Origin: Alphaproteobacteria bacterium
Lineage (GTDB): Bacteria; Pseudomonadota; Alphaproteobacteria; GCA-2731375
Assembly (NCBI GenBank): GCA_965232515.1
Contig: CBDDPY010000002.1
Coordinates: forward strand, 3,488,001 to 3,552,000
DNA: 64,000 nt
Direction: 5' to 3'
The position numbers were made by a program, and so were the translations under genes. The notes under the pieces are model-generated. The model was not told the DNA's origin. It saw only the letters and a list, made by a program, of their open reading frames with translations, and ran no database searches. Below are positions 8,291 to 30,206 of this stretch, one piece after another; position 1 is the stretch's first letter, and every line of letters starts with the position of its first letter.

Positions 8291-8942
8291 CGAGGGCCTC
8301 GCCAATGCGGCCGATCCAATCGCCAATCTGCTCGGGCCGGGTCTTGAAGGCGGCGCGGTTGACGATCAGCCGCGAGGTGATCTCGGCGATCGTCTCGACC
8401 TCGACCAGGCCGTTCGCGCGCAGCGTCGCGCCGGTGCTGACCAGGTCGACGATGCGCCGGCACAGGCCCAGGCCGGGCGCCAGCTCCATGGCGCCGTTCA
8501 GCTTGATGCATTCGGCCTGCACGCCGCGGGCGGCGAAGTGGCGGCGGGTGATCTCGGGATACTTGGTGGCGATGCGAATGTGGCTCCACTGTGCCGGATC
8601 GTCCTCGGCCAAGAGCTCGGCCGGCTCGGCGACGGCAAGACGGCAGTGGCCGACCTTCAGATCGAGCGGCGCATAGAGCTCGGAATAGTCGAACTCCATC
8701 AGCACGTCGTTGCCGGCGACGCCGATCTGCGCCGCGCCGAACGCCACGAACGTGGCCACGTCGAAGCTGCGCACGCGGATGATGCTGACATCAGGGTCGC
8801 GCGTGGCGAAACGCAGCTGACGGGAATTGGGATCGTCGAAGGCCGGCTCCGGCTCGAGGCCAGCCCGGCGCAGGATCGGCATCACCTCGCCGAGGATCCG
8901 CCCCTTGGGGAGCGCAATGACCAGGGGGTCGTTGGCGCGCAT
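8280..8942 (-). CDS. hisG: ATP phosphoribosyltransferase (short form)
   Basis: [42 protein letters not shown]. Confidence 0.96.
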
Positions 8943-12912: not shown

Positions 12913-14451
12913 CTAACTCCCCGCGATGCGGCGGTCGTGGCCCGACCAGTGGGGTTCGCGGAGGTCCTTGCGTTTGATTTTGCCGACCGGGCTTTTGGGG
13001 AGCGGGTCGGTGCGGAATTCGACGCGGCCGGGCTTTTTGTAGGAGCCGAGGCGGTCGGTGCAGAGGTCGATGATTTCCTGCTCGGATACCGGCGTCTCGC
13101 CGTCGGTGACGCAGACGGCCATGGGCGTTTCGCCCCAGCGCTCGTGCGGCACGCCGAAGACGGCGACCTCGACCACGGCGGGATGGTCGGTGATGACGTT
13201 CTCGAGCTCGGCGGGCCAGATGTTGTAGCCGCCGGAGATGATCATGTCGTCGGACCGGTCCAGCATGTAGAGATAGCCGTTCTCGTCCAGCATGCCGATG
13301 TCGCCGGTCAGCACCCAGCCGTCGACCAGGCGCTCGGCCGTGGCTTCGGGATTGTTCCAGAAACCGACCATCTGGCCGTCGGTTTTGGCGGCGATCTCGC
13401 CGGCCTGGCCGGGCGGCAGCGGCTTGTTGTCGTCGTCGCGGATCTCGAGCTGGGCGAACGGCAGCGCGAGACCACAGGAACGCAGCGGCGTCGAGCCGTC
13501 GACGTCGGCGAACCATTGCCGCGGGCCCATCATGGCGACCGGCAGCACCTCGGTCTGGCCATAGCCCTGATAGAGCACGTCGCCGAAGATCTCGCGGCCG
13601 GTGAGCGCGGTGTCGTCGGCGATCGGCGCCGCCGCGATCAGCAGGCATTTCAACTTCGACCAGTTGCGTTCGCGCACGCCCGGCAGATGGTTGAGGGCGT
13701 TCAGCATGGTCGGGACCAGGAACATATAGGCGATGCCCTCGCCCTCCATGACGTCCAGCGTCTCGACCGGATCGAAATGGTCGAGCATGACGTTGCAGCC
13801 GCCGCCGAGCCAGACCGGCACGAACAGATAGCCGGAGCCGTGGCTGATCGGCCCGAGATGCAGGCAGGGATCGCCCGGCTCGACCGGCGGATAGAGATAG
13901 AACCAGTCGCGCCCGGCGGCGAGCCAGGCGCGATGCGTATAGGCGACGCCCTTGGACTGGCCGGTGGTGCCGCCGGTATGGCGGATGATGTAATTGTCGT
14001 CGGGATCGATCTCGAGGTTGGGATCGATATCGGAATGGCCGGCGAGCCAGGCCTCGTAGCCGTCGTCGCGCACGACGATGTGCCGGAGATCGTCGAGCTC
14101 GGCATCGATGCCGTCGACCTCGTGCGCGTACTTGTCGGCGACGATCACCGCCCGGCAGCCGGTATGGCCGAGCATGTGCAGATGCGCCTCGCGGCCGTTG
14201 CGCGGATAGAGCGGCACGCGCACGACATTGGCGACGGCGGCGCCCAGAAAGATGTCAGCCGACTCGACGCAATTGTCTTCCAGCACGCCGACGCGATCGC
14301 CGGGCTTCAGGCCCATGGCGATCAGCGCGTTGCCCATGCGCACGCCGCGCGCCCAGGCCTCGGCGAAGGTCAGCCGCCGGCCGCCGGCGACGATCGCCTC
14401 CCGCGTGGGATAAAACTGCGCGGCGCGGCGCATCTGCGTGCGCACATCCAT
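12913..14451 (-). CDS. AMP-dependent acyl-CoA synthetase/ligase
   Basis: HTGGTTGQSKG P-loop, YQGYGQTE, GWVLTGDIG, DRSDDMIISGGYNIWPAELE, LPKSPVGKI. Confidence 0.92.
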   Translation of the reverse strand: MDVRTQMRRAAQFYPTREAIVAGGRRLTFAEAWARGVRMGNALIAMGLKPGDRVGVLEDNCVESADIFLGAAVANVVRVPLYPRNGREAHLHMLGHTGCRAVIVADKYAHEVDGIDAELDDLRHIVVRDDGYEAWLAGHSDIDPNLEIDPDDNYIIRHTGGTTGQSKGVAYTHRAWLAAGRDWFYLYPPVEPGDPCLHLGPISHGSGYLFVPVWLGGGCNVMLDHFDPVETLDVMEGEGIAYMFLVPTMLNALNHLPGVRERNWSKLKCLLIAAAPIADDTALTGREIFGDVLYQGYGQTEVLPVAMMGPRQWFADVDGSTPLRSCGLALPFAQLEIRDDDNKPLPPGQAGEIAAKTDGQMVGFWNNPEATAERLVDGWVLTGDIGMLDENGYLYMLDRSDDMIISGGYNIWPAELENVITDHPAVVEVAVFGVPHERWGETPMAVCVTDGETPVSEQEIIDLCTDRLGSYKKPGRVEFRTDPLPKSPVGKIKRKDLREPHWSGHDRRIAGS

Positions 14452-15365: not shown

Positions 15366-15505
15366 GGCGGTCCGGGCCGGCAGATCAGGCTTATCGTAGC
15401 CATAAGGCAACTGGTGTTTGGCCAGTGTAGGCGCCCCACCGAGGGCGCGAACCCCCCGTGGATGCGGGCGATGCCCGCCTGATCGAACGACACGCCCGGA
15501 CCGCC
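15366..15505 (+). ncRNA. Y RNA-like element 4 (non-tRNA multi-hairpin domain)
   Basis: GGCGGTCCGGGC/GCCCGGACCGCC (12 bp) and GATCAGGC/GCCTGATC stems; GGCTTATCGTAGC and ACACGCCC motifs; ends 17 nt before the rsr ATG. Confidence 0.75.
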
Positions 15506-15522
15506 CCGTTGGGGTAGAGACG

Positions 15523-17136
15523 ATGACTTTGCGAGATCTGTTTTCGCGGCGCCGGACGCCGCAGCACGAAGCTTTGCCCGGCCAGGTGGCGAACGCGGCC
15601 GGCGGGCATGCCTTCGCCGTCGATGACTGGGACCGGCTCGACCGGTTTCTGGTGCTCGGCAGCGAGGACGGCACGTTCTACATCGCGCCGCGCGCATTGA
15701 CGCGCGAGAACGCCGAAGCCGTCGAACGTTGCCTGGCCGCCGACGGCGCGCGGGTCGTTGCCCGCGTGGTCGAAATCTCCGATGCCGGCCGCACGCCAAA
15801 GAACGACCCGGCGCTGTTCGTGCTCGCCATGGCGACGGCCAGCGACGATCAGGCGACCCGACAGGCGGCGTTGGCCGCGCTGCCCCAGGTGGCGCGGACC
15901 GGCACGCACCTGTTCCACTTCGCCGAGTTCGTCGAGGGCTTTCGCGGCTGGGGCCGCGGCCTGCGGCGGGCGGTTGCAAGCTGGTACGGCGATCAGCCGA
16001 TCGACCGGCTGGCGCTGCAGATGGTCAAGTACCGGCAGCGGGACGGCTGGTCGCACCGCGACCTGTTGCGGCTCGCGCACCCGGTCACGGCCGATCCGCA
16101 GCGTCGCGCGCTGTTCGAATGGGCCCTGCGTGGCGGCGGCGCCCCCGCGTTGCCAATGTTGGCGCAGGGGTTCGATGCGGCGCAGGCACCGGGGGCCGAC
16201 GTGCCGGCGCTGATCCGGCGGCACGGCCTGCCGCGTGAGGCGTTGCCGACCGACGCGTTGAACGACGTCGCGGTCTGGGCGGCGCTGCTGGAACGGATGC
16301 CGATGACGGCGACGATCCGCAGCCTCGCCAAGATGTCGGCGGTCGGTCTGCTGCGGCCGATGAGCGAGGCGGCCGCCCAGGTCGCGACGCGGCTGGGCGA
16401 CGGCGAAGCGCTGCGCAAGGCGCGGGTGCATCCGCTGGCGCTGCTGGTGGCGCAGTCCGTCTACGCGCAGGGCCGTGGCTTGCGGGGCAAGCTGGAATGG
16501 GAGCCGGTCGCGGAGGTGATCGACGCGCTGGACGCCGCATTCTACCGGGCCTTCGCCAACGTCGAGCCGACCGGCAAGCGGCTGCTGCTGGCGCTCGACG
16601 TGTCCGGCAGCATGACCTGGGGCCAGGTCGCGGGCTCGCCGCTGACGCCGCGTGAGGCCGCCGCCGCCATGGTGCTGGTCACCGCGGCGACGGAGCGCCA
16701 CGTGCGCACCGTCGGCTTCTCGTCGGCCGGCCGGCTGCAGTCGCGGGGCATGTTCGGTGGCAGCCGCGCCGACCACGGCCTGGTGTCGTTGCCGATCTCG
16801 CCGGGACAGCGGTTGGCGGACGTTCTGCGGATCACCGCCGATCTGCCGTTCGGTGGCACCGACTGTGCCCTGCCGATGCTGTACGCATTGGATCGGGGAC
16901 TCGAGGTCGACGCGTTCGTGGTCTACACGGACTCGGAGACCTGGGCCGGGAAGATCCACCCGGTGCAGGCCTTGCGCGACTACCGGCGCAAGACCGGTAT
17001 CGCGGCAAAGCTGGTGGTGGTCGGCATGGTGTCGAACGGCTTTTCGATCGCCGATCCGGACGATGCCGGCATGCTGGACGTGGTCGGCTTCGACGCCGCC
17101 GCGCCAGCCGTCGTCGCCGACTTCATCCGGCGTTAG
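15523..17136 (+). CDS. rsr: Ro60 / TROVE-domain RNA-binding protein (Rsr)
   Basis: RLDRFLVLGSEDGTFY, RTGTHLFHF, KYRQRDGWSHRDLLRLAHP, KARVHP, vWA MIDAS LALDVSGSM, GGTDCALPM, YTDSETWAG, SIADPDDAGMLDVVGFD. Confidence 0.96.
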   Translation: MTLRDLFSRRRTPQHEALPGQVANAAGGHAFAVDDWDRLDRFLVLGSEDGTFYIAPRALTRENAEAVERCLAADGARVVARVVEISDAGRTPKNDPALFVLAMATASDDQATRQAALAALPQVARTGTHLFHFAEFVEGFRGWGRGLRRAVASWYGDQPIDRLALQMVKYRQRDGWSHRDLLRLAHPVTADPQRRALFEWALRGGGAPALPMLAQGFDAAQAPGADVPALIRRHGLPREALPTDALNDVAVWAALLERMPMTATIRSLAKMSAVGLLRPMSEAAAQVATRLGDGEALRKARVHPLALLVAQSVYAQGRGLRGKLEWEPVAEVIDALDAAFYRAFANVEPTGKRLLLALDVSGSMTWGQVAGSPLTPREAAAAMVLVTAATERHVRTVGFSSAGRLQSRGMFGGSRADHGLVSLPISPGQRLADVLRITADLPFGGTDCALPMLYALDRGLEVDAFVVYTDSETWAGKIHPVQALRDYRRKTGIAAKLVVVGMVSNGFSIADPDDAGMLDVVGFDAAAPAVVADFIRR

Positions 17137-17200
17137 GACGGTGTGACTGTCCGCCGCCCGTGGTGTTCGACAACCCCGTCGCGCACCACGGGCGGCGGCG

Positions 17201-18733
17201 TCAGCCTTCGCTGCGGTTCCACGCGCCGGTGAAGCCGAGCGGGCCGCCCTCGGCGGTGACGCCGATGGCTTCGTGCGGCGGGCGGCAGACGACGTTCTTG
17301 CCCTTCCACGGATTGGCCCAGATCGCCACGCCCTTCGGCTTGCCGGCTTGATCGACGCGCTTGTTGACGACGTGCAGGCCGCGGATGGTGATCCGGCCCA
17401 TGGCGATGTCGGAGACATCCGGATTGGTCTGGGCCCGACGCGTCATCCAGGCGCAGAGATTGGCCTCGCCGTAGTTTTTGTCGGTGCGCGGCGAGCCGTC
17501 CTTCAGGTTCGCCTTGTCCGTACCGAAGCCGATGGCCAGCCATTGCGGGCCGTTCGGCTTCACGCACCTGACCTCGCGGATCACGGTGGCGCCGCCCTGG
17601 GGCACCTCGATGCAGGCGCCGGCGGACGCCTCGTAGACGCCGCCCTGGAAGTAGTTCACGGCGCAACGGCTCTTGGCGCCATGCGCCATGACGTTGTTGA
17701 CCGAGGTGACGTCGACCATCACCAGCATCGGGCAGAACCGCTTGCGGCGCCAATCGCCCGAGGCATAGATGCCGTGCGCGCCGTTGGAGTTGGCGCAACC
17801 GTCGAGCCGCGTGTTGAACAGCATCACCCAGCGCCCGGTCGTGCGCACGCAATTGTCCATGCCCTTGATGGTCATGTCGATCAGCACCAGCCGCGAGTCC
17901 CGCCGGCTGGTGGCGCCGATGCCAGCGGTGTATTTGCCGTAAGCCTTGCCGGCCACCGTGAAGCCTTCCATGGTCATGATGCGGTCGGCGTTGTGGCTCA
18001 GACAAAAGCTGCCGCCGCCGGGCCAGCCGTCGCGACAATCGATGACGGTCGGCCGCGTCTTGTCCTGCGCCCGCAGGCGCGACGCATTACGGGCGAACGT
18101 CTCGGTCGCGATCTTGCCGTTGGCGTTCTGATGCTGGCCGATGACGCGGATCGAATGGGTGCCGGGCAGGATCGCGATGCCGCCGTCCTTGGTCCGCCAG
18201 CTTCGCCACTGCCGGTCCGCCTGCAGGATCGAACCGTTGACACCGCGCATGCCGGCATACTGCGGATTCGACCTCAGATCGGCCACACAGGCCCAGGGCT
18301 TGCCGCAATCGACCGTATCGGGGCCGGGACGGCCGAGCCGCAAATACGGTTTCACGAGCGCGAGCACCGTCCGCTCGTTCTCGGTGCCGGCGATGGGCGG
18401 CCCGGCATCGACCACCACCGGCGCGGCGCGGCCGGTCACCACGGCCGGCCCCGGCGGGGCCGGTTTTTCAGCCTTCGGCGGCTCAGCCGCGGGTGGCGCC
18501 GCGGGTGCGTCGCGCTCAGCGGACGCGGCCGGTTGCTCGACCGGCACCGGCGTCAGCAGGAATTCTCCCTCGAGGCGATAGCGTTTGCCATCGATGGTGA
18601 CCTCGAGCTGAGACTGCGCCACCGCGCCCTGCCAACCAAGCGCCAGCAGCAGCAAGCCGCCAATGCCGGCCCAACGCGCGCGCCGCCAGACAAGCGAAAG
18701 ACTGGCAAGAAATATCATTGAACACCGTGTCAT
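17201..18733 (-). CDS. Exported protein with a probable right-handed parallel beta-helix (pectin-lyase-like) domain and Pro/Ala linker
   Basis: Signal-peptide-like segment ending AVA-QS; PAAAPPAAEPPKAEKPAPP linker; DNCVRT, GAHGIYASG, HGAKSRCAVNYF and IEVPQGGATVIR segments resemble beta-helix proteins. Start uncertain. Confidence 0.55.
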   Translation of the reverse strand: MTRCSMIFLASLSLVWRRARWAGIGGLLLLALGWQGAVAQSQLEVTIDGKRYRLEGEFLLTPVPVEQPAASAERDAPAAPPAAEPPKAEKPAPPGPAVVTGRAAPVVVDAGPPIAGTENERTVLALVKPYLRLGRPGPDTVDCGKPWACVADLRSNPQYAGMRGVNGSILQADRQWRSWRTKDGGIAILPGTHSIRVIGQHQNANGKIATETFARNASRLRAQDKTRPTVIDCRDGWPGGGSFCLSHNADRIMTMEGFTVAGKAYGKYTAGIGATSRRDSRLVLIDMTIKGMDNCVRTTGRWVMLFNTRLDGCANSNGAHGIYASGDWRRKRFCPMLVMVDVTSVNNVMAHGAKSRCAVNYFQGGVYEASAGACIEVPQGGATVIREVRCVKPNGPQWLAIGFGTDKANLKDGSPRTDKNYGEANLCAWMTRRAQTNPDVSDIAMGRITIRGLHVVNKRVDQAGKPKGVAIWANPWKGKNVVCRPPHEAIGVTAEGGPLGFTGAWNRSEG

Positions 18734-19137
18734 GGTCGCGCCGACGGTCTCTTTCGACCTTTCAGGCCGGACCGTCGTGTTGCCAGACAGTATAACCGGA
18801 ACCGCGCCGATCGCGACCTCAGCGGATATGACTGGATGTGGGAAGCGGCGCGGCTGCAACAAGTTTTGTTTGGTATTTTATATAAATACAAATCGTCTCT
18901 TTAATAAAAATTCAATTTTTCTTAAATGATCTCTAATTTCACAAGTATTCTTGCATCAAAATCAAACAATCACGGCTCAAAGCGGGACGTTTTTCTGACA
19001 CAAATTGTACCATCTCGTATCGGCAATGTCCGGAAATCCCAGGATTCCGGGGTTCGGCCGTTTGGCCCGCCACCTGCAATGATAGCGGTTGGGAGCCGCA
19101 CGGGTGCGGCGTTCGGTTAACGGAGGGCAGCAGAGCC

Positions 19138-19515
19138 ATGCAGGCACAGAACCGCCAAATTCTCGACTATTTCGGTTTCCTCCGGACGCTGAACCACGTC
19201 GACCCCGTTGCCGGCGACCGCCTGGCCGCGCAGCTCGACGACGATCTGTGCTACGAGTTCAGCAGCGCCCAGCACGAAGTCGATGGCGCCCTGGAAATCC
19301 ATACGACGGAATCGGTCAGGACCGCGGCAGATACGGCGCCGCAGATCAGCGTGCACCGGATTTTGCAGGTCGAACGGGGCCGGAACTGCCGGATCGATCG
19401 GGAAAAGATCGTCATCGACGGCTATTTCGACGACATCGACCGCCTGGGCTCGTCGCTGTTCACCTTCCTGACGGAACACGGGTTCGACCGGGTCGCGGGC
19501 GACGCGACCGCTTAG
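19138..19515 (+). CDS. Hypothetical protein (125 aa)
   Basis: GGAGGG upstream, GC-rich third positions, no motif recognised. Confidence 0.6.
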   Translation: MQAQNRQILDYFGFLRTLNHVDPVAGDRLAAQLDDDLCYEFSSAQHEVDGALEIHTTESVRTAADTAPQISVHRILQVERGRNCRIDREKIVIDGYFDDIDRLGSSLFTFLTEHGFDRVAGDATA

Positions 19516-19571
19516 GCCGAACCGCTCAATCGCGGCCGGCGAGGCGGTCGGCCGCGTTCGTTTGCTAAACC

Positions 19572-19599
19572 AACCGTAAATCCCGTTTTACGGTTTTTT
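19572..19599 (+). promoter_or_regulatory. Inverted repeat AACCGTAAA-N6-TTTACGGTT plus T-run (operator or weak terminator)
   Basis: Perfect 9-bp arms about 100 nt upstream of the SGNH-MBOAT operon. Confidence 0.45.
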
Positions 19600-19691: not shown

Positions 19692-20918
19692 ATGCAAGCC
19701 ACCGCGCGCGGCGCCCTGCCAGCACCGAGCAATCCCGACGACTCGCAAGATCACGACGTTGCCCAGGCGCCGGAAGGCTCCGACATCTCAGCCATTGGCG
19801 CGCTGTCGGCGCAAGACGGTGAGAGCGAGATCGGCCCCGGCCAATATGTCTTTCTGATGGCGCTGGTTATCGTCGGCGTGCTGACGGGCGTCGCCTTCGC
19901 CAATCACAACCTCACCCCCCTGATCTATCAGGAGCCGGCGCAGGCCGAGGTCGCCCAGACCCTCCATGGCGGCCAGAATTACGCGCTCTACGACCTGAAC
20001 TTCGAGATCCGCGGCGTCCGCCGGCATCAGATCCGGCTGATGACCAAAACGCCCGAGTTGATCATCCTGGGCGCCAGTCACTGGCAGGAAGCGCATGCCG
20101 GCCTGGTGCCGGGCGTGGACTTCTTCAACGCCCATGTGCACCGGGATTACTACGACGATCCCATCGGCATGGTCGGCCACCTGCTCGACTACAACCGCCT
20201 GCCGAAGACTCTTGTGATCAGCGTGCGCGACGCCACCTTCACGCCGGTCGCGGAGCGGACCGACTATCTCTGGCTGGGCGGCATCCCGTCCTTCCGGGCC
20301 ATGGAACCCCGCCTCGGCCTGCCGAAACGGCCGTGGTACGAGGACTACCATCTGCAGCCGGTGCTGGACCTGTTCTCCCTGCGATTGGCCATCACCGGCG
20401 GCTTGCGCGAGCTGCGCGCGGAGAACCGGCCCGGCCCGACGGATGCCGATTTCGCCGAGGACCTGGACATCTTCATGGCCGACGGCTCGATCCGCTGGTC
20501 GGGCGAGCACCTCGCCGCCTTCACGCCTGAATATGTCCGCGACCGGGCGCTGGAAATGGCCCAGCACGTCCGCCGGCATCCGCCACGGATCAACGCCGAC
20601 ACGGTCGACGCCTTCCGCCGCATGCTGGCGCTGCTGCAGAACCACGACGTCGATGTTGTGCTGGCCCATCCGCCGTTCAATCCGCAGTTCCACGACGCCG
20701 TCGCCGGCAGCGACTATGCCGATCACCTGAACGCCGTCGAGGCCCTGACCCGGGATCTCGCCGCGCAGTACGGCGCCCGCACCGCCGGCAGCTTCGATCC
20801 CGCCCGGGTCGGCTGCACGGCCGACATGTATATCGATTCCGAGCACAGCCGGCCGGTCTGCCTGCAGAAACTGCTGACGCAGGTCGTGTCCGGCCGCTCA
20901 CAGGCGCCGTCGCTTTAG
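19692..20918 (+). CDS. Membrane-anchored SGNH-like acyltransferase (DltD/AlgJ/AlgX-like)
   Basis: One N-terminal TM helix; LIILGASH (GxS block I-like) and C-terminal MYIDSEH (DxxH); directly upstream of an MBOAT gene. Confidence 0.65.
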   Translation: MQATARGALPAPSNPDDSQDHDVAQAPEGSDISAIGALSAQDGESEIGPGQYVFLMALVIVGVLTGVAFANHNLTPLIYQEPAQAEVAQTLHGGQNYALYDLNFEIRGVRRHQIRLMTKTPELIILGASHWQEAHAGLVPGVDFFNAHVHRDYYDDPIGMVGHLLDYNRLPKTLVISVRDATFTPVAERTDYLWLGGIPSFRAMEPRLGLPKRPWYEDYHLQPVLDLFSLRLAITGGLRELRAENRPGPTDADFAEDLDIFMADGSIRWSGEHLAAFTPEYVRDRALEMAQHVRRHPPRINADTVDAFRRMLALLQNHDVDVVLAHPPFNPQFHDAVAGSDYADHLNAVEALTRDLAAQYGARTAGSFDPARVGCTADMYIDSEHSRPVCLQKLLTQVVSGRSQAPSL

Positions 20919-20943
20919 CCGGCCGCCCGTTGGAGCAACCGTC

Positions 20944-22467
20944 ATGCTTTTCCATTCCGTTGAGTTCATTCTGGGCTTTCTGCCCATCTGCTTCATCATC
21001 TTCGCGATCGTGCACCGCACGGCCGGCAAGCGGGCGGCGCTGGCGTGGCTGGCGCTGGCGTCGATTATCTTCTATGCGCAATGGAGCCTGGCGCATGGCG
21101 CCTTGCTGGTGGGTTCGGTCGGCACGAACTACCTGTTCAGCCGGGCCATGCTGCGCACCGATCAGCAGCCGAAGCTGCGACAGGCGATCTTTATCCTCGC
21201 GATCGCGGCGAACCTCGCCCTGCTCGGCTATCTGAAGTACACGAACTTCCTGATCGACAATATCAACGCGCTGACCGAGGCGAACTATCACTATGTCGCC
21301 GTGCTGGCGCCCGTCGGCATCTCGTTCTTCACCTTCATCCAGATCGGCTTCCTGGTCGAGGTCTACAACCGCCAGGTCTCGCGCCTGTCGATCGTCGACT
21401 ATTTCCTGTTCGGCTCGTTCTTCGGCTACGTGACCGCCGGTCCGCTGGTCCTGCAGCGCGACATGACCTCGCAGTTCGAGCGCAAAGACGACAAGGTGCT
21501 CGATCTGTCGCGAATCTCGATCGCGATCACGGTCTTCGGCTTCGGCCTGTTCAAGAAGATGGTGCTGGCCGACAGCGTCGCGCCCTATGCCGACGCAGTC
21601 TTCAACGGCGTCGCCGACGGCGCGCTGCCATCGACCAGCCTGGCCTGGATCGGCGCGCTGGCTTACACCGTGCAGCTCTATTTCGACTTCTCCGGCTATT
21701 CCGACATGGCGCTGGGCGCCGGCCTGCTGTTCGGCTTGAAGCTGCCGTTCAACTTCAATTCGCCGCTGAAAGCGACCAGCATCACCGATTTCTGGCGCCG
21801 CTGGCACATGACGATGACGCGGTTCTTCACCAACTATCTGTATTCACCGCTGGCCGTCGCCGCGACCCGGCGGGCCATGGCCAACAAGTCTTCGAAGGCT
21901 CAGCGATTTGTCGCCTCCGTCGCCGTGCCGGTGTTCTTCACCTTTCTGCTGGCCGGCATCTGGCACGGCGCGGGCTGGACCTTCGTCATCTTCGGCGCGA
22001 TCCACGGCCTGGCCATGGCGATCAATCACGCCTGGCGCCAATCCAAGGCGCCGACGCTGCCGGCGCCGGCGGGCTGGCTGCTGACAATGTCGGTGGTCAT
22101 TACCGGCCTGGTGTTCTTCCGGGCGCCGGACGTGTCGACCGCGCTGGTCATCCTGACCGCGATGGTCGGCGCCGGCGCCGACGCCAGCGGCTGGGTCGCG
22201 ACCGTCAACGTGCCGACTGTGTCCTATCCAGACGCCGTCGCCGTCATCACGCTGCTGGCCGCCATCGCCCTGATGATGCCGAACACGCAGCAGATCCTGT
22301 ACCGCCACAAGATCAGCTCGGACCCGGCCGACTACGAGGAGCTGTCGTTGTCGAAGTGGCTGCTCTGGCGACCGACGCTGCGCTGGGCGGCAACCTGCGG
22401 CATCGTCGTCGCCGTGGCGCTCGGCCTGGCGACCGGCGAGACCGCGTTCATCTATTACCAGTTCTGA
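20944..22467 (+). CDS. MBOAT family O-acyltransferase (AlgI/DltB-like)
   Basis: PVGISFFTFIQI, GLFKKMVLAD, QLYFDFSGYSDMALG, NFNSP, DFWRRWHMT, GIWHGAGWTF; C-terminus AFIYYQF. Confidence 0.95.
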   Translation: MLFHSVEFILGFLPICFIIFAIVHRTAGKRAALAWLALASIIFYAQWSLAHGALLVGSVGTNYLFSRAMLRTDQQPKLRQAIFILAIAANLALLGYLKYTNFLIDNINALTEANYHYVAVLAPVGISFFTFIQIGFLVEVYNRQVSRLSIVDYFLFGSFFGYVTAGPLVLQRDMTSQFERKDDKVLDLSRISIAITVFGFGLFKKMVLADSVAPYADAVFNGVADGALPSTSLAWIGALAYTVQLYFDFSGYSDMALGAGLLFGLKLPFNFNSPLKATSITDFWRRWHMTMTRFFTNYLYSPLAVAATRRAMANKSSKAQRFVASVAVPVFFTFLLAGIWHGAGWTFVIFGAIHGLAMAINHAWRQSKAPTLPAPAGWLLTMSVVITGLVFFRAPDVSTALVILTAMVGAGADASGWVATVNVPTVSYPDAVAVITLLAAIALMMPNTQQILYRHKISSDPADYEELSLSKWLLWRPTLRWAATCGIVVAVALGLATGETAFIYYQF

Positions 22468-22495
22468 CCCCGCGTACTGCCTGGGAGATCATGTC

Positions 22496-23701
22496 ATGAC
22501 GATCGTCATCGACCTGCCACGACAAATCGACGAAACGCTCGCCGCCGACATCGAGAAGGAGTCGGTGTTCGTGTCGCCGCATCTGTCCACGCTGCGGGTC
22601 AACCCCGACCGCACCAACATCGCCGCCGAGCTGACCGATCCCATGTGGGACGCCGACGTGCGGGAAAAGCTCGGTCGGTTCCTTGACGCCATGCTGAAGC
22701 GGGTGCATCAGTTCGACACCAAGGTCTTCCTGCAGACCGAACGTCGCGATCCGAACCCTTTTCACACAGATGTGCACGGCGAGCTGAAACGCCGCGGTTG
22801 GCTCTACGACTTTGGCGGCGGCCATGTATCGCTGGCCGGCCCGGCCCTTAACCTGGCGCGGGCCATCGACGCGGCCGCGGCCGACCTCTATCGGCAGAAT
22901 TTCCCGTTCGAGGAGCGCCAGTATCCGGCCCTGATCCGGGCCGATCTGCTGGCGCGCTGCGGCTATTTCGAATCGCACCCCAATGCCGTCTGCTTTGTCG
23001 GCCACATCATCGAGGACTTCGACGCGATCGAGAACTTCCGCGTCACCAACAGCAATGTCGACGAGACCGTTCTGCCGCCGAAGGATCACGTGCACCTGCC
23101 GGGCATGTGTCTGAACCCGGCTGCCTGCTTCCCTTGCTACCCGTCGCTGCAGGGCCAGAAGATCGCCGACGACGGCCGCGTCCTGTCCTGGAACGGCCGG
23201 GTCTTCCGCTTTGAATCCCGCAACGTGTCGGGCCTGGACCGGCTCTGGGAGTTCGGCGTCCGAGAGATCGTGTTCATCGGCACCGAGGACTTCGTCACAC
23301 GGAGCCGGGAGCGGGCACTGCCCCTGGTCGCGAAGCTGGCCGAGACATTCGACCTCGCCTGCCAGGTCGAAACCGCGGCCGATCCGTTTTTCGCCACGGT
23401 CTCGGCGGCAAAAACCTTCTGGCAGCAGGCCCAGGAGGTGAAGAACGAGATCATGGTGCCGATCGGCGTTCGCGAGGACGGCAGCGAGCGGCGGCTGGCC
23501 TGCGGCTCAGTCAACCTGCACGGCAACTTCTTCGGCGAGCGCTTCGACATCACCGATAGCGAGGGCTTGGCCGCCTTCACGGCCTGCATCGGTCTCGGCA
23601 TCGAGCGCTGGGTGCTGGCGGCGTTCGTGCAGCACGGTTTCGATCCCGAACGCTGGCCGAGCCAGGTGCGCGACCTTGTGTTCGCCGGAACCAACCCCTG
23701 A
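22496..23701 (+). CDS. Class II aaRS homolog: SerRS-like amino acid:[carrier protein] ligase
   Basis: LNPAACFPCY, motif 2 FRFES...RLWEFGVREIVFIG, ACGSVNLHGNFFG, motif 3 TACIGLGIERW; lacks the bacterial SerRS coiled-coil arm; next to a carrier protein gene. Confidence 0.85.
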   Translation: MTIVIDLPRQIDETLAADIEKESVFVSPHLSTLRVNPDRTNIAAELTDPMWDADVREKLGRFLDAMLKRVHQFDTKVFLQTERRDPNPFHTDVHGELKRRGWLYDFGGGHVSLAGPALNLARAIDAAAADLYRQNFPFEERQYPALIRADLLARCGYFESHPNAVCFVGHIIEDFDAIENFRVTNSNVDETVLPPKDHVHLPGMCLNPAACFPCYPSLQGQKIADDGRVLSWNGRVFRFESRNVSGLDRLWEFGVREIVFIGTEDFVTRSRERALPLVAKLAETFDLACQVETAADPFFATVSAAKTFWQQAQEVKNEIMVPIGVREDGSERRLACGSVNLHGNFFGERFDITDSEGLAAFTACIGLGIERWVLAAFVQHGFDPERWPSQVRDLVFAGTNP

Positions 23702-23757
23702 CAGGTGGCCGACGGCCGGCCTGTTCACTACCAACCGAAGCAGAAAGGCTTTGCGCT

Positions 23758-23988
23758 ATGTCAGCTTTGCATCAGATCGTGGCAGACGTCCTGGAAATGT
23801 CGGTCGCCGAGGTCAGTGACGAAACCAGTCCGACCACGGCCAAGAGCTGGGACAGCATGAAGCACATCGAGCTGGTCCTGGCGCTGGAGACCAATTTCGG
23901 CGTCAAGTTCGCACCGTCGGAGATCATGCTGATCAACTCGCTCGGCGCGGCGCGGGATCTGCTGAGCCAAAAAGGCGCGGCGGTCTAA
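23758..23988 (+). CDS. Acyl/aminoacyl carrier protein
   Basis: 76 aa, WDSMKHIELVLALETNFGVKF phosphopantetheine attachment motif. Confidence 0.92.
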   Translation: MSALHQIVADVLEMSVAEVSDETSPTTAKSWDSMKHIELVLALETNFGVKFAPSEIMLINSLGAARDLLSQKGAAV

Positions 23989-24081: not shown

Positions 24082-25599
24082 CTAGCCGACAACGAGCGCC
24101 GCCGGCGCGACGATGCGGTCCTTCGGCAGCAGGATGCGCGCCGTCGTGCCGACGCCCGGTTCGCTCTCCAACTCGAAGCTGCCGCCGTGCAGCTCGGCAT
24201 ACCATTTCACCAGCGGCAGGCCGAGACCCGTGCCCTCGTAGTGACGGCTGAGCTCGCTGTCGGCCTGGCCGAAGGGCGTCAGACACTTTTCAATGTCCTC
24301 GGCGGCAATGCCGATGCCGGTGTCCCGCACGGTGAATTCGAGACCGCCGTCGCCTGCCCGATCTACCTCGAGGGTGACGGTGCCGTTGCCCGGCGTGAAC
24401 TTCACGGCGTTCGACAACAGATTGATCAAGGCCTGGCGCAGCGCCCGTTCGTCACCCTGGACCGCGTGCAGATCGGACGCAATCCGCGACTCCACACGGA
24501 CGCCTTTGTCGTCCGCCTGAGGCGCCGTCTGGCGCAGGCAAAAGGACACCAGCAGCTCGAGGTCGACGGCCGCTTCATGAATCTCGGTCATGCCGGCCTC
24601 GATCTTGGACAGGTCAAGGATGTTATTGATGATGCCGAGCAAATGCTCGCCGCTGTGGTAGACGTCATCGATATAGACACGATACTTCTCGTCGCCGAGC
24701 GGTCCGTGCAGCTCCTGCATCATGATTTCCGAGAAGCCGATGATCGCGTTCAGCGGCGTGCGCAGCTCGTGACTGACATTGGCGAGGAACGCCGACTTCG
24801 CCCGGTTGGCCGAATCCGCCGCCTCCTTCGATCGCACCAGCTCGATTTCGGCCGCCTTGCGCTCGGTAATGTCGAGGCAGATCAACACATGCATGCCCTG
24901 CGGCGCCGCGTTGTGGCGCACCTCGAGGATGTGCTCCTGCGGGGTTGTAACCTCTTGCGCGCCCTCCGACTGCAGCGCGGCGATATCGACCAAGCCGAGC
25001 AGGGCATCACCGACCGGCTTGTCGGCGCCCGACGAAACGGCGCTCTCGTCGCTCTCACCGGCGCCGGATGCATCGAGTTCCAGCAGATCCCGCAAACGGC
25101 TGTTGCAGGCAACCAGTCGCATGCCGCGGTCGAAGGCCGCAATGCCCGCGCCCGTATGCTCCAACGTCGCGGTCAGCAATGCCGTACGCTCGGCCAGGTC
25201 GGCCCGGTTGCGGGCCTGCACGATGGCGTAGCGGATGGTCCGTTCCAGAATTTCCGGCGACAGGCTGCCCTTCTCCAGGAAGTCGGCTGCGCCGGCTTCG
25301 GACGCCTCGACGTCGATTTCCCGGTTCGCCAGGCCGGTCAACAGGATCAGCGGGACCTGGCAGCCCTCGGCAACCGCCGCGCGGATGAAGGCCAGACCGG
25401 TCTCGGCGCCGATCCGGTAATCGACGAGACCGATGTCATACATCTCGGCTTCGAGCTGGCTGCGCGCTTCGTCGAAGCTGCGGACCCAGGTCAGGTCCAG
25501 ACTGAACAGCTTGGAGTCGCTGAGCAGATCGTCCAGCAACAGGTAGTCGTCCTCGTCATCCTCGACGAGAAGGCAGCGTATGCGCGCGGCTTCACTCAT
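24082..25599 (-). CDS. Hybrid receiver-PAS-histidine kinase (PleC/DivJ-like kinase core)
   Basis: N-terminal REC (LLVEDDEDD...VDYR...FLEKG); AKSAFLANVSHELRTPLNAIIGFSEIM; NLLSNAVKFT, DTGIGI, GTGLGL. Confidence 0.93.
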   Translation of the reverse strand: MSEAARIRCLLVEDDEDDYLLLDDLLSDSKLFSLDLTWVRSFDEARSQLEAEMYDIGLVDYRIGAETGLAFIRAAVAEGCQVPLILLTGLANREIDVEASEAGAADFLEKGSLSPEILERTIRYAIVQARNRADLAERTALLTATLEHTGAGIAAFDRGMRLVACNSRLRDLLELDASGAGESDESAVSSGADKPVGDALLGLVDIAALQSEGAQEVTTPQEHILEVRHNAAPQGMHVLICLDITERKAAEIELVRSKEAADSANRAKSAFLANVSHELRTPLNAIIGFSEIMMQELHGPLGDEKYRVYIDDVYHSGEHLLGIINNILDLSKIEAGMTEIHEAAVDLELLVSFCLRQTAPQADDKGVRVESRIASDLHAVQGDERALRQALINLLSNAVKFTPGNGTVTLEVDRAGDGGLEFTVRDTGIGIAAEDIEKCLTPFGQADSELSRHYEGTGLGLPLVKWYAELHGGSFELESEPGVGTTARILLPKDRIVAPAALVVG

Positions 25600-25637: not shown

Positions 25638-26099
25638 TCAGGCGTGCCGCACGCAACCCGGCGGCAGCTGGACGATCTCGATCCAATAATTGCTGAGGAT
25701 TCGCACGACCTCGACCAAGCCTTCGAACGTTACCGGCTTGGTGATGAAGGAGTTCACGCCGGTGACATAGGTCCGCAGGATGTCTTCTTCGGCCTTCGAC
25801 GTGGTGACGACGACGACCGGTATCGTGCGGAACCGCTCATCTTCTTTCATCTGCCGCAGCGCCTCACGGCCGTCCATCTTCGGCATGTTGAGGTCGAGCA
25901 GAACCAGGCCCGGATAGGGTTGGCCGTCGAGATGCGCCCAATCGCCTTCCCGGCGCAGATAGGCGAGGAGCTGCTCCCCGTCCTCGACAAAGTCGAGGTG
26001 ATTGCCGATGCAGTTCTCCTTGAACGCATCCTCGATAAGCATCCGGTCGTCCGGATCGTCGTCAGCGACCAGAATCGAGATGGAATCCCGTCGGTTCAT
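25638..26099 (-). CDS. Single-domain response regulator (Rcp1-like)
   Basis: ILVADDDPDD, LLDLNMPKMDG, IPVVVVTTS, NSFITKPV, YWIEIVQLP. Confidence 0.93.
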   Translation of the reverse strand: MNRRDSISILVADDDPDDRMLIEDAFKENCIGNHLDFVEDGEQLLAYLRREGDWAHLDGQPYPGLVLLDLNMPKMDGREALRQMKEDERFRTIPVVVVTTSKAEEDILRTYVTGVNSFITKPVTFEGLVEVVRILSNYWIEIVQLPPGCVRHA

Positions 26100-28078
26100 T
26101 GCATTTCCGTCCCTTGCTCGTGCTTGAGGGGCAGCGTGAGGATGAACGTGGCGCCCTCGTCCTCGACGCCGCGGGCCTCTATGGCGCCGTAGTGGCGTTC
26201 AACGATCTTCCGGCAGGTCGCCAGTCCGATTCCGGTGCCCTCGTAGGTGCCACGTCCGTGCAGGCGCTGGAAGATCCCGAAGATCTGTTCGGCGTATTTG
26301 GCATCGAAGCCGATGCCGTTGTCGGCGATGCTGATGCGGCAGGCCTCGGCGTCCGCGCGCGCGACCGGTCCCTCGCCGTCCGATGCGATCAGCTCGGCCG
26401 TGATCTCGACCCGCGACGGCACGCCGTCACGGCGGAACTTCAGCGCGTTGCTGATCAAGTTCTGGAACAGCTGCCGCATCTGAACCGCGGACGCCTCTAT
26501 ATCGGGCATTTCGGCGACCTCGACCGTCGCCTCCGTTTCGGCGATGCGGATTTCCAGATCCGACAGAACCTCCTCGATGACCTTGTTCAGGTCGATCGGC
26601 TCGAACGGCTCGGTCCGCGAGGTCACGCGCGAATAGGTCAGCAGGTCGTTGATCAGCTCGTGCATGCGCCCCGCGGCGTCCTGGATGCGGCCGATATAGA
26701 GCTGACCGTCCTCGCTCACCTGGTCGCCGCACTTTTTGACCAAGCGGTCGCTGAAGGCCTGAATCTTGCGCAACGGCTCCTGCAGGTCGTGCGAGGCGAC
26801 GTAGGCGAATTCCTGCAGTTCCCGGTTGCGCCGTTCCAGCGCCTCGGCATGCTTATGAAGACTGGCTTCGGCCTGCGCCCGGGCGGTGATGTCCTCGTAG
26901 GTGGCGACCGAACCGCCACCGGCCATGGGCTGATGCAGCACGGCGATAACGCGGCCGTCGCCCAGGCGCTGCTCGATGATCGACTGCTGCCGCTGCGCGG
27001 CCTGGCTCGGCCGCTCGGCCAACGCCCGGCCAGCTTCGTCGCGCCGGTAATTGCCCAGCGAAATGCTGTATTCCATGATGTCGCGCAGCCGGATGCCGGG
27101 CTTCACGACGTCGGGCGAAAACCCGTACATGTCCAGGTAGCGTTGATTGCAGACGATCAGACGCTGGTCCGAGTCGAACAGGCAAAGCCCCTGGGCCATG
27201 TTGTTCAAGGCCGTGTCGAAGTGCAGATTCTGCACCTTCAACACCTCGCTCAATCGCGTCAGTTCGGCTTCGCGCCGCTTCAACTCGGTAATTTCGGAAC
27301 GAATGCTGACAGTGTTGCCGTCGCTGGTGCTGGTTTCGCTGCAATGCAGCCAGCGCCCGTCGCCCAACTGGATTTCGAAGCTGTCGCGGCGTCCACGAAT
27401 GGCGTCCTTGCGCAACTTCAGCAAGCTCTCGGCCGACTCGTATTCGCTGGAATACTGTCCTAGCGCGAAGGCGTCCCGCAGCAAACTCTTGTAGCGGGAG
27501 CCGGGCAGCAGGCGGTCGGCGATCACCGGGTGATAGTCGCGATAGCGCTCGTTGCAGAACATCAACCGGTCGTCCTGATCGAACAGGGCGAAGCCGTCGG
27601 CCATGCAGTCCAGCGCATCCAGCACTTCGGCACGGGCCGCGACCGCGGCATGCTGGCGCAGAAACTGGTCGAGCGCATCGTCGGCATCCTTGCGGGCGCA
27701 GACCCGGATCAGACCGCCGCCGTAAAGCGGCGCCGTGACGGTGGTGATCGTGCAATCGTCCCGACGCGCCCAGTCCTCTCGGAAGGGTTGCGCCTTGTGA
27801 GCCTGGTCGATCAACCGGATCGTCTGCCGCTCGGTCTCGCCCAGGCTCAATTGTCCACGCGCGGCGGCGAAGCGAAGAAAGTCCTCATACGCCCGTCCAC
27901 GCTGGGCGAAGGCGACCGGCAGTTCGAGCAACTCGAAAAAGTCGTGGTTCCACGCCGTCAGCCGCAGACCGGAATCAAACAGCGCCATGCCGACATCGAG
28001 ACGGTCATCGGCATCCGACGCGAGCGTCCGGTTTTCGGCCGGCCGCTGAGTGGACCTGATGGGACGGATCGCGACCAT
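26096..28078 (-). CDS. Multi-PAS sensor histidine kinase
   Basis: Three PAS-fold segments (GMALFD, GFALFD, GLCLFD); EFAYVASHDLQEPLRKIQAF H-box; QNLISNALKF, DNGIGF, GTGIGL. Start approximate. Confidence 0.92.
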   Translation of the reverse strand: MVAIRPIRSTQRPAENRTLASDADDRLDVGMALFDSGLRLTAWNHDFFELLELPVAFAQRGRAYEDFLRFAAARGQLSLGETERQTIRLIDQAHKAQPFREDWARRDDCTITTVTAPLYGGGLIRVCARKDADDALDQFLRQHAAVAARAEVLDALDCMADGFALFDQDDRLMFCNERYRDYHPVIADRLLPGSRYKSLLRDAFALGQYSSEYESAESLLKLRKDAIRGRRDSFEIQLGDGRWLHCSETSTSDGNTVSIRSEITELKRREAELTRLSEVLKVQNLHFDTALNNMAQGLCLFDSDQRLIVCNQRYLDMYGFSPDVVKPGIRLRDIMEYSISLGNYRRDEAGRALAERPSQAAQRQQSIIEQRLGDGRVIAVLHQPMAGGGSVATYEDITARAQAEASLHKHAEALERRNRELQEFAYVASHDLQEPLRKIQAFSDRLVKKCGDQVSEDGQLYIGRIQDAAGRMHELINDLLTYSRVTSRTEPFEPIDLNKVIEEVLSDLEIRIAETEATVEVAEMPDIEASAVQMRQLFQNLISNALKFRRDGVPSRVEITAELIASDGEGPVARADAEACRISIADNGIGFDAKYAEQIFGIFQRLHGRGTYEGTGIGLATCRKIVERHYGAIEARGVEDEGATFILTLPLKHEQGTEMQ

Positions 28079-28375
28079 GAAGGAACCCATAGAACAGTTC
28101 AGGCCCGTTTGACCGGCGGAAAGGCCCAACGGGCCAGCGCGCCAGCCCCGCCGATACGCCGGGCTTTGACATGAGGGGAATCTAGTCGACCGTGCTTAAA
28201 GATGCCCTAATCAGCGCACGGCAATCGCAGGATTCGGAAAAAAATCACAATCGGAAGTTGATAAACCGTTCAAATCGAACGGCAGCGCCACTAAACCGTG
28301 CCACTGCTGAACGCATTCTTAATGGTCGTCCGACAGAATGGCGCTCGTCAGTTTCGCAAGATGTGAGAGGCAGGA

Positions 28376-29518
28376 ATGCCTTCGCAGGGAAAGCGGCAGA
28401 AGCGGCCGCCTGCTGTTGGAGATGCCCCGTCTTCCCTGCCATCCGCCGGGAACCAGACGGATGATTCCGATCATGCCGGATCGGGCGACGGCCTGTGGCA
28501 TCAAGCCAGGACCGAGCTCGCCGACAATGAGATCGGCCGCCGGTTGATCAGCACCGACGCGGACGACAAGGGCTCGGCCAATCTTCGTTACTATGGCCGT
28601 TTCGTCGTCTTCGGCGGCGTCATCGTCGGCTTCGCGGTGCCGGCGATCTCGGAGGCGCTTAAGCCCTTCTTGTCGGTCCTGCTGATCGCCACCCTGGTAT
28701 TCGGGTTGCTGCAGGTCGACTTCGAGCGTCTCGCCGGCTTCCGCAAACAGGTCTGGCCCATCACGGGCCTGCTCTTCGCCGTTCTGCTGCTGCTGCCGGT
28801 GTTCGTCGCGCTTGAGGCCAAGGTTGTCCTTGTGGCCTACGGTCTGCCACAGGGGATCGCCGACGGATTGATTTTGGCGGCCCTGTCGCCGCCGCTGCTG
28901 GCGGCGCCAGCCATTGCCTTCCTGCTTGGCCTGGACTCGCTGCTCGCTTTCGTGGTCGCCATGATCGCCCACCTGCTGGCGCCGTTGACCGTGACGTTCC
29001 TGGCGCAATGGCTGGTCGGGCCGCACCTGCAAATCGACTCGGCGGAGCTGATGTCCCGGCTGACCGTCATCATCGGCACAGGCTTCATCATCGGTCTGAC
29101 GCTGCGACGGATTCCGCTGACCGCACGTGTCAGCAAGGCGAATCGCGGCCTTATCGACATCCTGTCGATCGCGACCCTGACGCTGCTGGCCGCGGCCCTG
29201 ATGGATGGTGTCGCAGAGATCGCAATCCGCGACCCGCAATACGTCCTTATCGCCGTGGCCTGCGGATTTCTGCTCAATCCGCTGCTGCAACTCCTCGGCG
29301 CCTTCCTGTTCGTGAAGTCGGGATTCGAAATGTCGCTGACGGTCGGCCTGCTGGCCGGCTATCGAAATGTCGGCCTGCTGATCGCGGCACTGGCGGGCGG
29401 CGCCGACCAGGAGGTCATCGCCTTTCTGGCGATCGTCCAGATCCCCGCCTTCGTCATTCCGATGCTGTCAGGCCCCGTCCTGAAGAAAGTCAAAACCATC
29501 GGCTTCGACAGACCCTGA
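28376..29518 (+). CDS. Bile acid:sodium symporter-like membrane protein
   Basis: About 10 hydrophobic helices; LSPPLLAAPA and GYRNVGL segments. Start uncertain. Confidence 0.6.
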   Translation: MPSQGKRQKRPPAVGDAPSSLPSAGNQTDDSDHAGSGDGLWHQARTELADNEIGRRLISTDADDKGSANLRYYGRFVVFGGVIVGFAVPAISEALKPFLSVLLIATLVFGLLQVDFERLAGFRKQVWPITGLLFAVLLLLPVFVALEAKVVLVAYGLPQGIADGLILAALSPPLLAAPAIAFLLGLDSLLAFVVAMIAHLLAPLTVTFLAQWLVGPHLQIDSAELMSRLTVIIGTGFIIGLTLRRIPLTARVSKANRGLIDILSIATLTLLAAALMDGVAEIAIRDPQYVLIAVACGFLLNPLLQLLGAFLFVKSGFEMSLTVGLLAGYRNVGLLIAALAGGADQEVIAFLAIVQIPAFVIPMLSGPVLKKVKTIGFDRP

Positions 29519-29615: not shown

Positions 29616-30206
29616 ATGTCCGCGCCTGGAAAGTCGAATCCCGCCACCAGCCTCGCCGCCGGCGAGTATGCCGCGATCGAGTGGTATTGCACCGAGCAGG
29701 GCATGGATGTGCCGAAGTTGATCTGGTCGCCGGCGCCGGAAAACCTCGAACACAACCCTCTGCGCTTTCTGATGGACTATTGGCAGCGCCTACGGCAGGC
29801 CGACGGCCTGCCCCGCGCGACCGCGATCGACCCCGTCGAAATGCGACCCGCATTGGGCAATGTGATGCTGCTGGACGTCCTGGACGGCGGCACCGACTTC
29901 CGCTACCGCCTCTACGGCAGCAAGATCGCCGAACGCGCCGGATTCGACATGACGGGCAAGCGCGTGTCGGATATCGGCACCAGCACCGCCGTCGCCACGT
30001 TCTTCACCTATGTCTATCAGGCCGTCCTCAAGCGCCGCGAGCCGATCTATACGGAGCACCGGCCACCCGCGGCGATCCGGGTCACCAAATGGTACCGCCT
30101 GATCCTGCCGCTAGGCGACGCGGATGGTGCGATCAACCGCTTGCTTGTCGGAAACATCCCCGGCGATTGGCGGCCATCGCCGGCCACCAACGACACGCGA
30201 GACTAG
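29616..30206 (+). CDS. PAS-domain (PAS_5-like) protein
   Basis: DYWQRLR..GLPRATAIDPVEMRPALGNVMLLDV...FRYRLYGS...RLILPL. Confidence 0.82.
   Translation: MSAPGKSNPATSLAAGEYAAIEWYCTEQGMDVPKLIWSPAPENLEHNPLRFLMDYWQRLRQADGLPRATAIDPVEMRPALGNVMLLDVLDGGTDFRYRLYGSKIAERAGFDMTGKRVSDIGTSTAVATFFTYVYQAVLKRREPIYTEHRPPAAIRVTKWYRLILPLGDADGAINRLLVGNIPGDWRPSPATNDTRD

Follow-up and report, generated by a model that had tools for sequence, protein, structure and literature searches.

We describe here a four-gene cassette at positions 19692 to 23988 of a 64,000-nucleotide stretch (the window) of contig CBDDPY010000002.1 from an Alphaproteobacteria bacterium (GCA_965232515.1). The cassette probably encodes a pathway of the Dlt kind that depends on a carrier protein and attaches a small amino acid, through an ester bond, to an acceptor in the periplasm or envelope. 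Its activating enzyme would be a class II ligase resembling seryl-tRNA synthetase (SerRS), standing in for the adenylating enzyme DltA, and its acyl group would pass from a small carrier protein through a DltB-like MBOAT to a DltD-like SGNH protein. Unless a locus is named, coordinates are positions in the window. The cassette consists of the following features.

19692..20918, + strand: DltD-like SGNH acyltransferase, 408 residues; N-terminal membrane anchor, periplasmic catalytic domain (gene 1)
20944..22467, + strand: DltB-like MBOAT, 507 residues; Pfam MBOAT, C-terminal FIYYQF with Tyr504 (gene 2)
22496..23701, + strand: SerRS-like class II ligase, proposed amino acid:[carrier protein] ligase, 401 residues (gene 3)
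23758..23988, + strand: carrier protein, 76 residues; W-D-S motif, Ser33 presumed phosphopantetheine site (gene 4)
19531..19595, + strand: two terminator-like hairpins, from a consensus scan only, marking the predicted 5' boundary of the cassette transcription unit

An earlier reading of this DNA, the original prediction, had listed four tightly spaced, co-oriented genes with gaps below 60 nucleotides, encoding an SGNH-like membrane-anchored protein, an MBOAT, a SerRS-like enzyme and a carrier protein with a WDS motif. All four open reading frames (ORFs) are confirmed, each on the + strand, with intergenic gaps of 25, 28 and 56 nucleotides. The further proposal, that a synthetase paralog and a carrier protein feed the MBOAT and SGNH proteins in place of DltA, withstood every in-silico test that was run; what did not hold is the assignment of the ligase to the known class of such enzymes.

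A cassette conserved as a unit

The cassette looks like a single transcription unit, because its gaps are tight, terminator-like hairpins lie upstream and the gene downstream is convergent. The hairpins (19531-19556 and 19572-19595, consensus scan only) are 3' of a 125-residue ORF that precedes the cassette, and the gene 3' of the carrier protein is on the opposite strand. A purine-rich stretch resembling a Shine-Dalgarno sequence stands before every cassette ATG.

A scan of one genome per species yielded 126 loci at which a ligase relative is encoded, and the best 80 of the 126 were used. All 80 are from alphaproteobacterial metagenome-assembled genomes, with ligase identities of 53-91%, and were searched by tblastn with the four window proteins. 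The order DltD-like gene, MBOAT, ligase, carrier protein is always the same, an arrangement that far exceeds chance. The carrier protein gene is present in 79/80 loci, the single miss (L066) being at a contig end. The MBOAT is found in 77/80; contig ends account for the three misses and also cut into two of the 77. For the DltD-like gene the count is 72/80, seven misses being at contig ends and one real (L007). Median gaps are 17 nucleotides between the DltD-like gene and the MBOAT, 39 between the MBOAT and the ligase, and 25 between the ligase and the carrier protein. In this neighbourhood survey, of the kind that the original prediction had called for, ligase, MBOAT and carrier protein co-occur, and the four genes are strictly co-conserved.

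The real miss is one decayed cassette. At 7394-9478 of L007 (the same place as L003) the MBOAT is reduced to its last 195 residues and the ligase and carrier protein are intact, with no DltD-like gene in the 8 kb of sequence upstream. Among related genomes the ligase is found in 4/41, the window's own included: three of 24 others of the family and none of 16 from other families. This patchy distribution suggests that the cassette moves as a block.

A DltB-like acyltransferase with a fused shuttle motif

The gene 2 product matches Pfam MBOAT (4.3e-25), and its sole NCBIfam match is the DltB model TIGR04091 (6.7e-51). When a profile of 20 orthologs was compared with the PDB, DltB chains were the only matches (4e-43). 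His288, His341 and F502/Y504/F507 are invariant in the family. Two extra hydrophobic segments (426-444 and 478-496) follow the DltB-like region, and the protein ends in FIYYQF; FxYxxF stands at the C-terminal end of 77/77 orthologous MBOAT ORFs in the related loci.

FxYxxF is an acyl-shuttle motif, as described in a 2025 paper (PMC12148441). In that account the motif is on the microprotein DltX in the Dlt system, is fused to PatA and other MBOATs on two additional helices, and uses its Tyr to convey the acyl group to the SGNH partner. The cassette MBOAT has the PatA-type layout, with the motif fused to its C-terminus behind two additional predicted transmembrane helices, instead of a separate DltX. 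The relation to DltB claimed previously thus stands, together with the Tyr motif; the fused DltX-type shuttle had been overlooked.

For the gene 1 product, Pfam gives only a weak match (NonGDSL, 0.0019), and 772 relatives were found among 1.84 billion representative sequences. The protein has a single hydrophobic anchor (residues 52-70), and Ser129, Asp382 and His385, its putative catalytic triad, are invariant in an alignment of 35 relatives, 13 of which match Pfam DUF1574. Its AlphaFold model is confident (pLDDT 91, pTM 0.85), with a disordered N-terminus, a long helix (49-74) and then a globular domain. The top ten Foldseek matches of this model in the PDB are all DltD. The margin in Z is small, and the difference comes from about 65 extra aligned residues; insertions of DltD are therefore common to the gene 1 product. 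Membrane anchor, SGNH fold and Ser-Asp-His residues are all those of a DltD-type transferase, and the SGNH-like identity first proposed can be sharpened to a predicted fold best matched by DltD.

Two relatives of this protein, each a single case, carry additional domains. P0122 (47% identity) has a C-terminal, peptidoglycan-binding SPOR domain, and the 819-residue database protein P0140 has an N-terminal SBF domain joined to its DltD-like domain. In some orthologs (P0122, P0124 and P0145, and those of L018, L025, L055, L062, L070 and L074) the C-terminus is extended into a long tail that is basic and rich in Pro and Ala; several of them, P0122 not included, finish close to a recurring motif, L-[VI]-W-P-G-D.

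The same genome encodes a second MBOAT, ending in FIYFRF, at 7525-8898 (- strand) of L164 (contig 2, 2938000-2955000). A DltD-like/DUF1574-like protein (hhalign, 96.4%) is encoded upstream of it, and the pair is situated in a sugar-nucleotide locus, surrounded by genes for UDP-GlcNAc 2-epimerase, NAD-epimerase and SIS proteins; neither a ligase nor a carrier-protein gene is present there. The two proteins probably serve ordinary O-acylation of a polysaccharide, and the ligase and carrier-protein genes are therefore an add-on specific to our cassette.

The second pair also bears on a different explanation of the cassette, in which the MBOAT and DltD-like protein are themselves an ordinary acyl-CoA-dependent O-acetylation pair, comparable to PatA/PatB or AlgI/AlgJ. 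The ligase and carrier protein would then be separate and co-inherited, building for example a small aminoacyl-derived metabolite. A pair that occurs in the same genome without a carrier protein is what this explanation would expect, and the fused tail on two extra helices is the layout of the acetyl-CoA-using PatA and AlgI, as given in the same paper (PMC12148441). Two independent co-inherited functions fit less well with a four-gene order that is invariant, with median gaps of 17-39 nucleotides, down to 53% ligase identity. In addition, no other candidate user of an aminoacyl-carrier protein is conserved in the cassette. Together with the distribution of ligases described below, these observations make the O-acetylation explanation distinctly unlikely in our view.

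A synthetase-like ligase and its carrier protein

The gene 3 product is matched equally well by two enzyme families, the amino acid:[acyl carrier protein] ligases (NF005479, 1.7e-45, 155.3 bits) and type-2 SerRS (NF002120, 1.5e-45, 155.8 bits, with the cut-off of 611 not reached). A third model, TIGR00415, gives 124 bits against a cut-off of 489. Among PDB sequences the closest are the carrier-protein ligase Bll0957 (1.6e-32) and Methanopyrus SerRS (2.7e-32). The class II core is that of methanogen-type SerRS: Cys211, Glu240 and Cys364 are invariant across the ligase family and line up with the Cys, Glu and Cys of both Bll0957 and the Methanopyrus enzyme. We take these three residues to be zinc ligands that hold the amino group of the substrate.

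A tRNA-charging enzyme, perhaps an antibiotic-resistant or stress-related second SerRS unrelated to the carrier protein, would account for the equal matches and for the name seryl-tRNA synthetase that JGI annotations give to relatives of the ligase. We consider it highly improbable. The protein aligns to SerRS only from around position 175 of the 518 in the model and thus lacks most of the N-terminal domain that binds tRNA, and it has 401 residues where a full-length SerRS, with that domain and a score over the cut-off, has about 520. A canonical bacterial SerRS is encoded elsewhere in the genome (526.7 bits against a cut-off of 301.65). The ligase gene itself is a single copy in this genome, its restriction to four of the 41 related genomes is not what a tRNA-charging role would lead one to expect, and a carrier-protein gene follows it in 79/80 loci. 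Such an adjacent carrier-protein gene is also found in other ligase subfamilies, at L112, L152, L155 and L104, which are described below.

Residues 1-67 of the ligase form a small conserved beta-alpha-beta-beta-alpha domain that is absent from Bll0957 and may be what is left of the N-terminal domain of SerRS. In a look-alike Atlas cluster, which we treat as a lead only, 17% of members carry PF18490 (tRNA_bind_4). The same Atlas lead places look-alike ligases of 400 residues in other phyla (Actinomycetota, Bacillota and Chloroflexota). No forms of the ligase with 703-2005 residues were found, which is weak evidence, and there was no ligase/carrier-protein fusion among the 120 near-length matches listed, all of 371-412 residues.

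The replacement of DltA, as originally proposed, agrees with the retained Cys-Glu-Cys site and with the gene content of the genome. There is no DltA equivalog among its 51 ANL matches, the best of which scores 138 bits against the TIGR01734 cut-off of 559.85, and domain scans found no AMP-binding domain in the four cassette genes or their flanks. The nearest ANL gene is at about 12955-14439 on the minus strand. We rejected this gene, 5 kb upstream, as a hidden DltA, as it is kept beside the cassette in the same-genus locus only.

The gene 4 product matches Pfam PP-binding (5.5e-6). Its motif is W31-D32-S33, and Trp31, Ser33 and His36 are invariant among 19 orthologs. The top PDB match is 2lml, an uncharacterised acyl carrier protein.

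Ligase clades and other gene arrangements

The original prediction had gone on to suggest that the cassette would supply a function for the Bradyrhizobium/Agrobacterium-type ligases. This does not follow. Seven classical ligases score over the NF005479 cut-off among 401 sampled genomes of the class, and no MBOAT or DltD-like gene was found within 8 kb of any of the seven. A quick maximum-likelihood tree of 45 rows, comprising 16 of the 83 window-type loci (window included) and all other fetched ligases, places the window-type ligases in their own clade (SH-aLRT 99) and the classical enzymes in another (100). Given the separate clade and the lack of an MBOAT near classical ligases, our finding suggests a function for a sister subfamily only. 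The cassette as a classical amino acid:carrier-protein ligase system was rejected, since both its neighbours and its clade differ.

Classical ligases (L102-L108; e.g. 4396-9890 of L104) occur in a conserved cluster of their own, made up of a carrier protein, an acyl-CoA-dehydrogenase-like protein, the ligase and DUF1839. The acyl-CoA-dehydrogenase-like gene is present in 6/7 loci, the carrier protein in 5/7 and DUF1839 in 4/7, and the cluster of L104 also holds an ABC exporter. This neighbourhood may be the real clue to the function of the classical ligases.

Other arrangements bring a ligase and an MBOAT together independently of the window-type order. L112 (7382-11677) encodes a carrier protein, a 422-residue ligase (34% identity), a GNAT protein, an MBOAT with FIYFRF at its end and a 315-residue protein with weak similarity to DltD, in a genome that has a window-type cassette too. 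In other classes of the phylum, where the ligase profile was matched in 43/401 sampled genomes, L152 (1520-5798) has a ligase, a carrier protein, a KASIII-like gene and an MBOAT ending in FIYFQF. At L149 (8001-10903) the ligase is accompanied by a convergent MBOAT that also ends in FIYFQF, and no carrier-protein gene was detected at this locus. In the remaining 13/15 ligase loci of other classes there is no MBOAT nearby; in L155, the one of these that was examined, a carrier protein comes after the ligase. The link between ligase and MBOAT thus appears to be present in at least three ligase clades, yet is not universal.

This distribution speaks on both sides of the O-acetylation explanation. 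Classical ligases and most of the distant relatives work without an MBOAT, as enzymes with a separate metabolic role would. On the other hand, a link of ligase, carrier protein and MBOAT that appears to have arisen in at least three separate ligase clades, with differing gene orders, is difficult to attribute to co-inheritance.

Proposed pathway

The model with the most support combines elements of Dlt and PatAB. Domain identities, conservation of catalytic residues and gene linkage anchor it, and from these we infer the chemical steps, the amino acid and the acceptor. In a first step, the cytoplasmic ligase would bind a small alpha-amino acid through its zinc site, adenylate it with ATP and, in place of DltA, pass the aminoacyl group to the thiol of the phosphopantetheine that Ser33 of the carrier protein is presumed to bear. 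By analogy with characterised ligases, Gly, Ala or Ser would be expected as substrate. The aminoacyl-carrier protein would then dock at the cytoplasmic face of the MBOAT, where His341 would catalyse transfer to Tyr504, on the periplasmic side, in the enzyme's own FIYYQF tail. That tail would be a fused equivalent of DltX, as in PatA. Finally, the DltD-like protein would accept the aminoacyl group on Ser129 and hand it to a hydroxyl of the acceptor, for which peptidoglycan, exopolysaccharide, lipopolysaccharide, periplasmic glucans and phosphatidylglycerol are candidates. A predicted complex of MBOAT and carrier protein, both entered as alignments, scored 0.12 against a mark of 0.32, which is evidence neither for nor against binding.

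Several observations weigh against this pathway. It is from gene linkage that we infer the amino acid and the acceptor, and even that the MBOAT uses the carrier protein. Both the ligase and the MBOAT score under every curated family cut-off, the ligase reaching 155.3 bits where NF005479 asks for 357 and the MBOAT 173.7 bits where the TIGR04091 equivalog cut-off is 375. Neither DltC nor the partner of Bll0957 is among the 51 PDB sequences that match the carrier protein (E <=0.01). The 80 loci are all of one class, and part of their synteny may be inherited rather than selected; the wider survey is limited to one phylum, and in its other classes an MBOAT is near the ligase in only 2/15 fetched loci of more distant, full-length ligase relatives. 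By analogy with its relatives, the MBOAT may also accept acyl-CoA. The studied MBOATs with a fused FxYxxF tail, of which PatA is the example, use acetyl-CoA, according to the 2025 paper (PMC12148441).

The nature of the acceptor is a separate question. The pathway could run as proposed through the DltD-like enzyme and deliver the amino acid, instead of to a polymer, to the head group of a membrane lipid or to a small molecule that is periplasmic or secreted. The product might be, for instance, a tRNA-independent aminoacyl-phosphatidylglycerol or a signal sensed by the neighbouring kinases. To our knowledge, Gram-negative bacteria, and Pseudomonadota among them, have no teichoic acids, and phosphatidylglycerol contains a glycerol that is chemically similar to the acceptor of Dlt. 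In addition, the genes linked to the cassette are those for kinases, REC-GGDEF-EAL proteins and an SBF transporter, not those for glycosyltransferases or for exporting a polymer. Against a small acceptor, the relative P0122 bears its SPOR domain, which binds the polymer peptidoglycan, and the characterised MBOAT/SGNH pairs all act on polymers, according to the same 2025 paper (PMC12148441). A non-polymer acceptor is, on this evidence, fairly unlikely.

If aminoacylation through the DltD-like protein is correct, environmental Alphaproteobacteria should bear an amino acid in ester linkage on some part of their envelope, possibly under the control of cyclic di-GMP (c-di-GMP). It is tempting to speculate that such a modification could alter the charge of the cell surface, the way biofilms behave and how well the cells resist cationic compounds.

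Relation to known systems

The cassette shares with Dlt a DltB-like MBOAT, the FxYxxF Tyr shuttle, a membrane-anchored DltD-fold SGNH transferase that acts outside the membrane and, as proposed here, a carrier-protein thioester as acyl donor. It differs in its activator, a class II synthetase-like ligase where Dlt has the ANL enzyme DltA, and in its shuttle motif, which is fused to the MBOAT and not on a DltX microprotein. Its carrier protein is not DltC-like in the PDB sequence comparison, and the group transferred is more probably glycine or an L-amino acid than D-alanine. Teichoic acid is not expected as acceptor, all related genomes being those of Alphaproteobacteria or other Pseudomonadota.

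Aminoacylation of a Gram-negative envelope through an aminoacyl-carrier protein has a precedent in Vibrio cholerae AlmEFG, which modifies lipid A with glycine. There, AlmE is a DltA-like ANL enzyme and AlmG is a homolog of cytoplasmic-face lipid A acyltransferases, not an MBOAT/SGNH pair. Dlt-type aminoacylation in a Gram-negative bacterium is also described for the dra locus of Bordetella pertussis (PMC4448142).

With PatA/PatB, AlgI/AlgJ/AlgX and WssH/WssI the cassette has in common an MBOAT with two extra C-terminal helices and an FxYxxF end, a separate periplasmic SGNH partner and a Gram-negative envelope. It departs from PatA/PatB-type systems in that a carrier protein and a dedicated ligase are invariant members. 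MBOAT/SGNH pathways other than Dlt have no carrier protein, in the account given by the 2025 paper (PMC12148441). The cassette would be an exception to this picture, combining a Dlt-type donor with a PatA-type fused shuttle.

Like Bll0957-type enzymes, our ligase has a truncated methanogen-type SerRS core with Cys-Glu-Cys and an adjoining small carrier-protein gene. It is about 85 residues longer, has the conserved 67-residue N-terminal domain and about 30% identity, falls under the NF005479 cut-off in a separate clade, and has MBOAT and DltD-like neighbours. SerRS-like carrier-protein ligases have reportedly been characterised structurally and kinetically since 2010. Their biological role was still called unknown in a 2022 review (PMC9437257). 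A sister subfamily of this orphan group is here locked into a pathway with understood logic, and its function is directly testable.

No description of a synthetase-like ligase feeding an MBOAT was found in the full-text literature searched, outside which lie most subscription journals and supplements. A bolder formulation, which we regard as quite possible if a little short of probable, is that this is the first carrier-protein-dependent MBOAT/SGNH system outside Dlt. It would place L-aminoacyl or glycyl groups on a Gram-negative envelope by ester bonds, after carrying them across the inner membrane on the MBOAT Tyr tail, with a ligase evolutionarily intermediate between methanogen-type SerRS and the truncated amino acid:carrier-protein ligases, under a PAS kinase and REC-GGDEF-EAL (c-di-GMP) switch, and the link would have been invented several times. 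If true, this repeated invention of the ligase/carrier-protein/MBOAT link points to a general tRNA-independent route of envelope aminoacylation.

Signalling and transporter neighbours

Outside the cassette proper, three neighbouring genes are associated with it.

24082..25599, - strand: REC-PAS-HisKA-HATPase kinase (Pfam)
26096..28129, - strand: histidine kinase with three PAS_7 domains (Pfam)
28376..29518, + strand: SBF (bile acid:sodium symporter family) membrane transporter (PF01758, 2.8e-10)

Orthologs of the three-PAS kinase (41-57% identity, coverage >=0.7) adjoin the cassette in 61/80 loci, in varying orientation, and relatives of the REC-PAS kinase (coverage >=0.7) do so in 29/80. A REC-GGDEF-EAL gene directly follows the carrier protein in 40/80. 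The SBF transporter is present in 58/80 loci by ORF cluster and in 48/80 by tblastn at a coverage of at least 0.7. Its gene usually comes immediately before the DltD-like gene, in the same orientation (e.g. 4056-5009 of L014); in the window it is instead 4.4 kb downstream. Substrate import and salvage are possibilities for its role.

Order and strand of the SBF, kinase and REC genes vary by lineage and their association with the cassette persists. The conservation of the SBF transporter, the PAS kinase and the REC protein suggests a link between the pathway and the control of the cell surface by two-component systems and c-di-GMP, with a dedicated circuit of this type accompanying the cassette. 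The original prediction had the four-gene core of this neighbourhood right and missed the transporter and signalling genes.

Beyond the SBF gene lie a PAS_5 protein (29616-30206) and a dCache-HAMP histidine kinase (30687-32504, - strand), and sensor kinases are unusually dense around the cassette. A TRAP transporter (DctP/Q/M) is encoded within 8 kb of the cassette in 35/80 loci, L008 and L014 among them; this association may be inherited synteny with no functional link.

On the other side of the cassette, within 15391-19515, two minus-strand ORFs of 675 and 553 residues are long, very GC-rich and without matches at family cut-offs, the 553-residue ORF having one faint NCBIfam match (E 0.0072). 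These flanks were rejected as part of the system, conservation being limited to the same-genus locus L006: the 675-residue ORF and the 125-residue ORF are kept there only, and the 553-residue ORF has no match in any locus. An AT-rich spacer at about 18860-18990 is followed by the 125-residue ORF upstream of the cassette.

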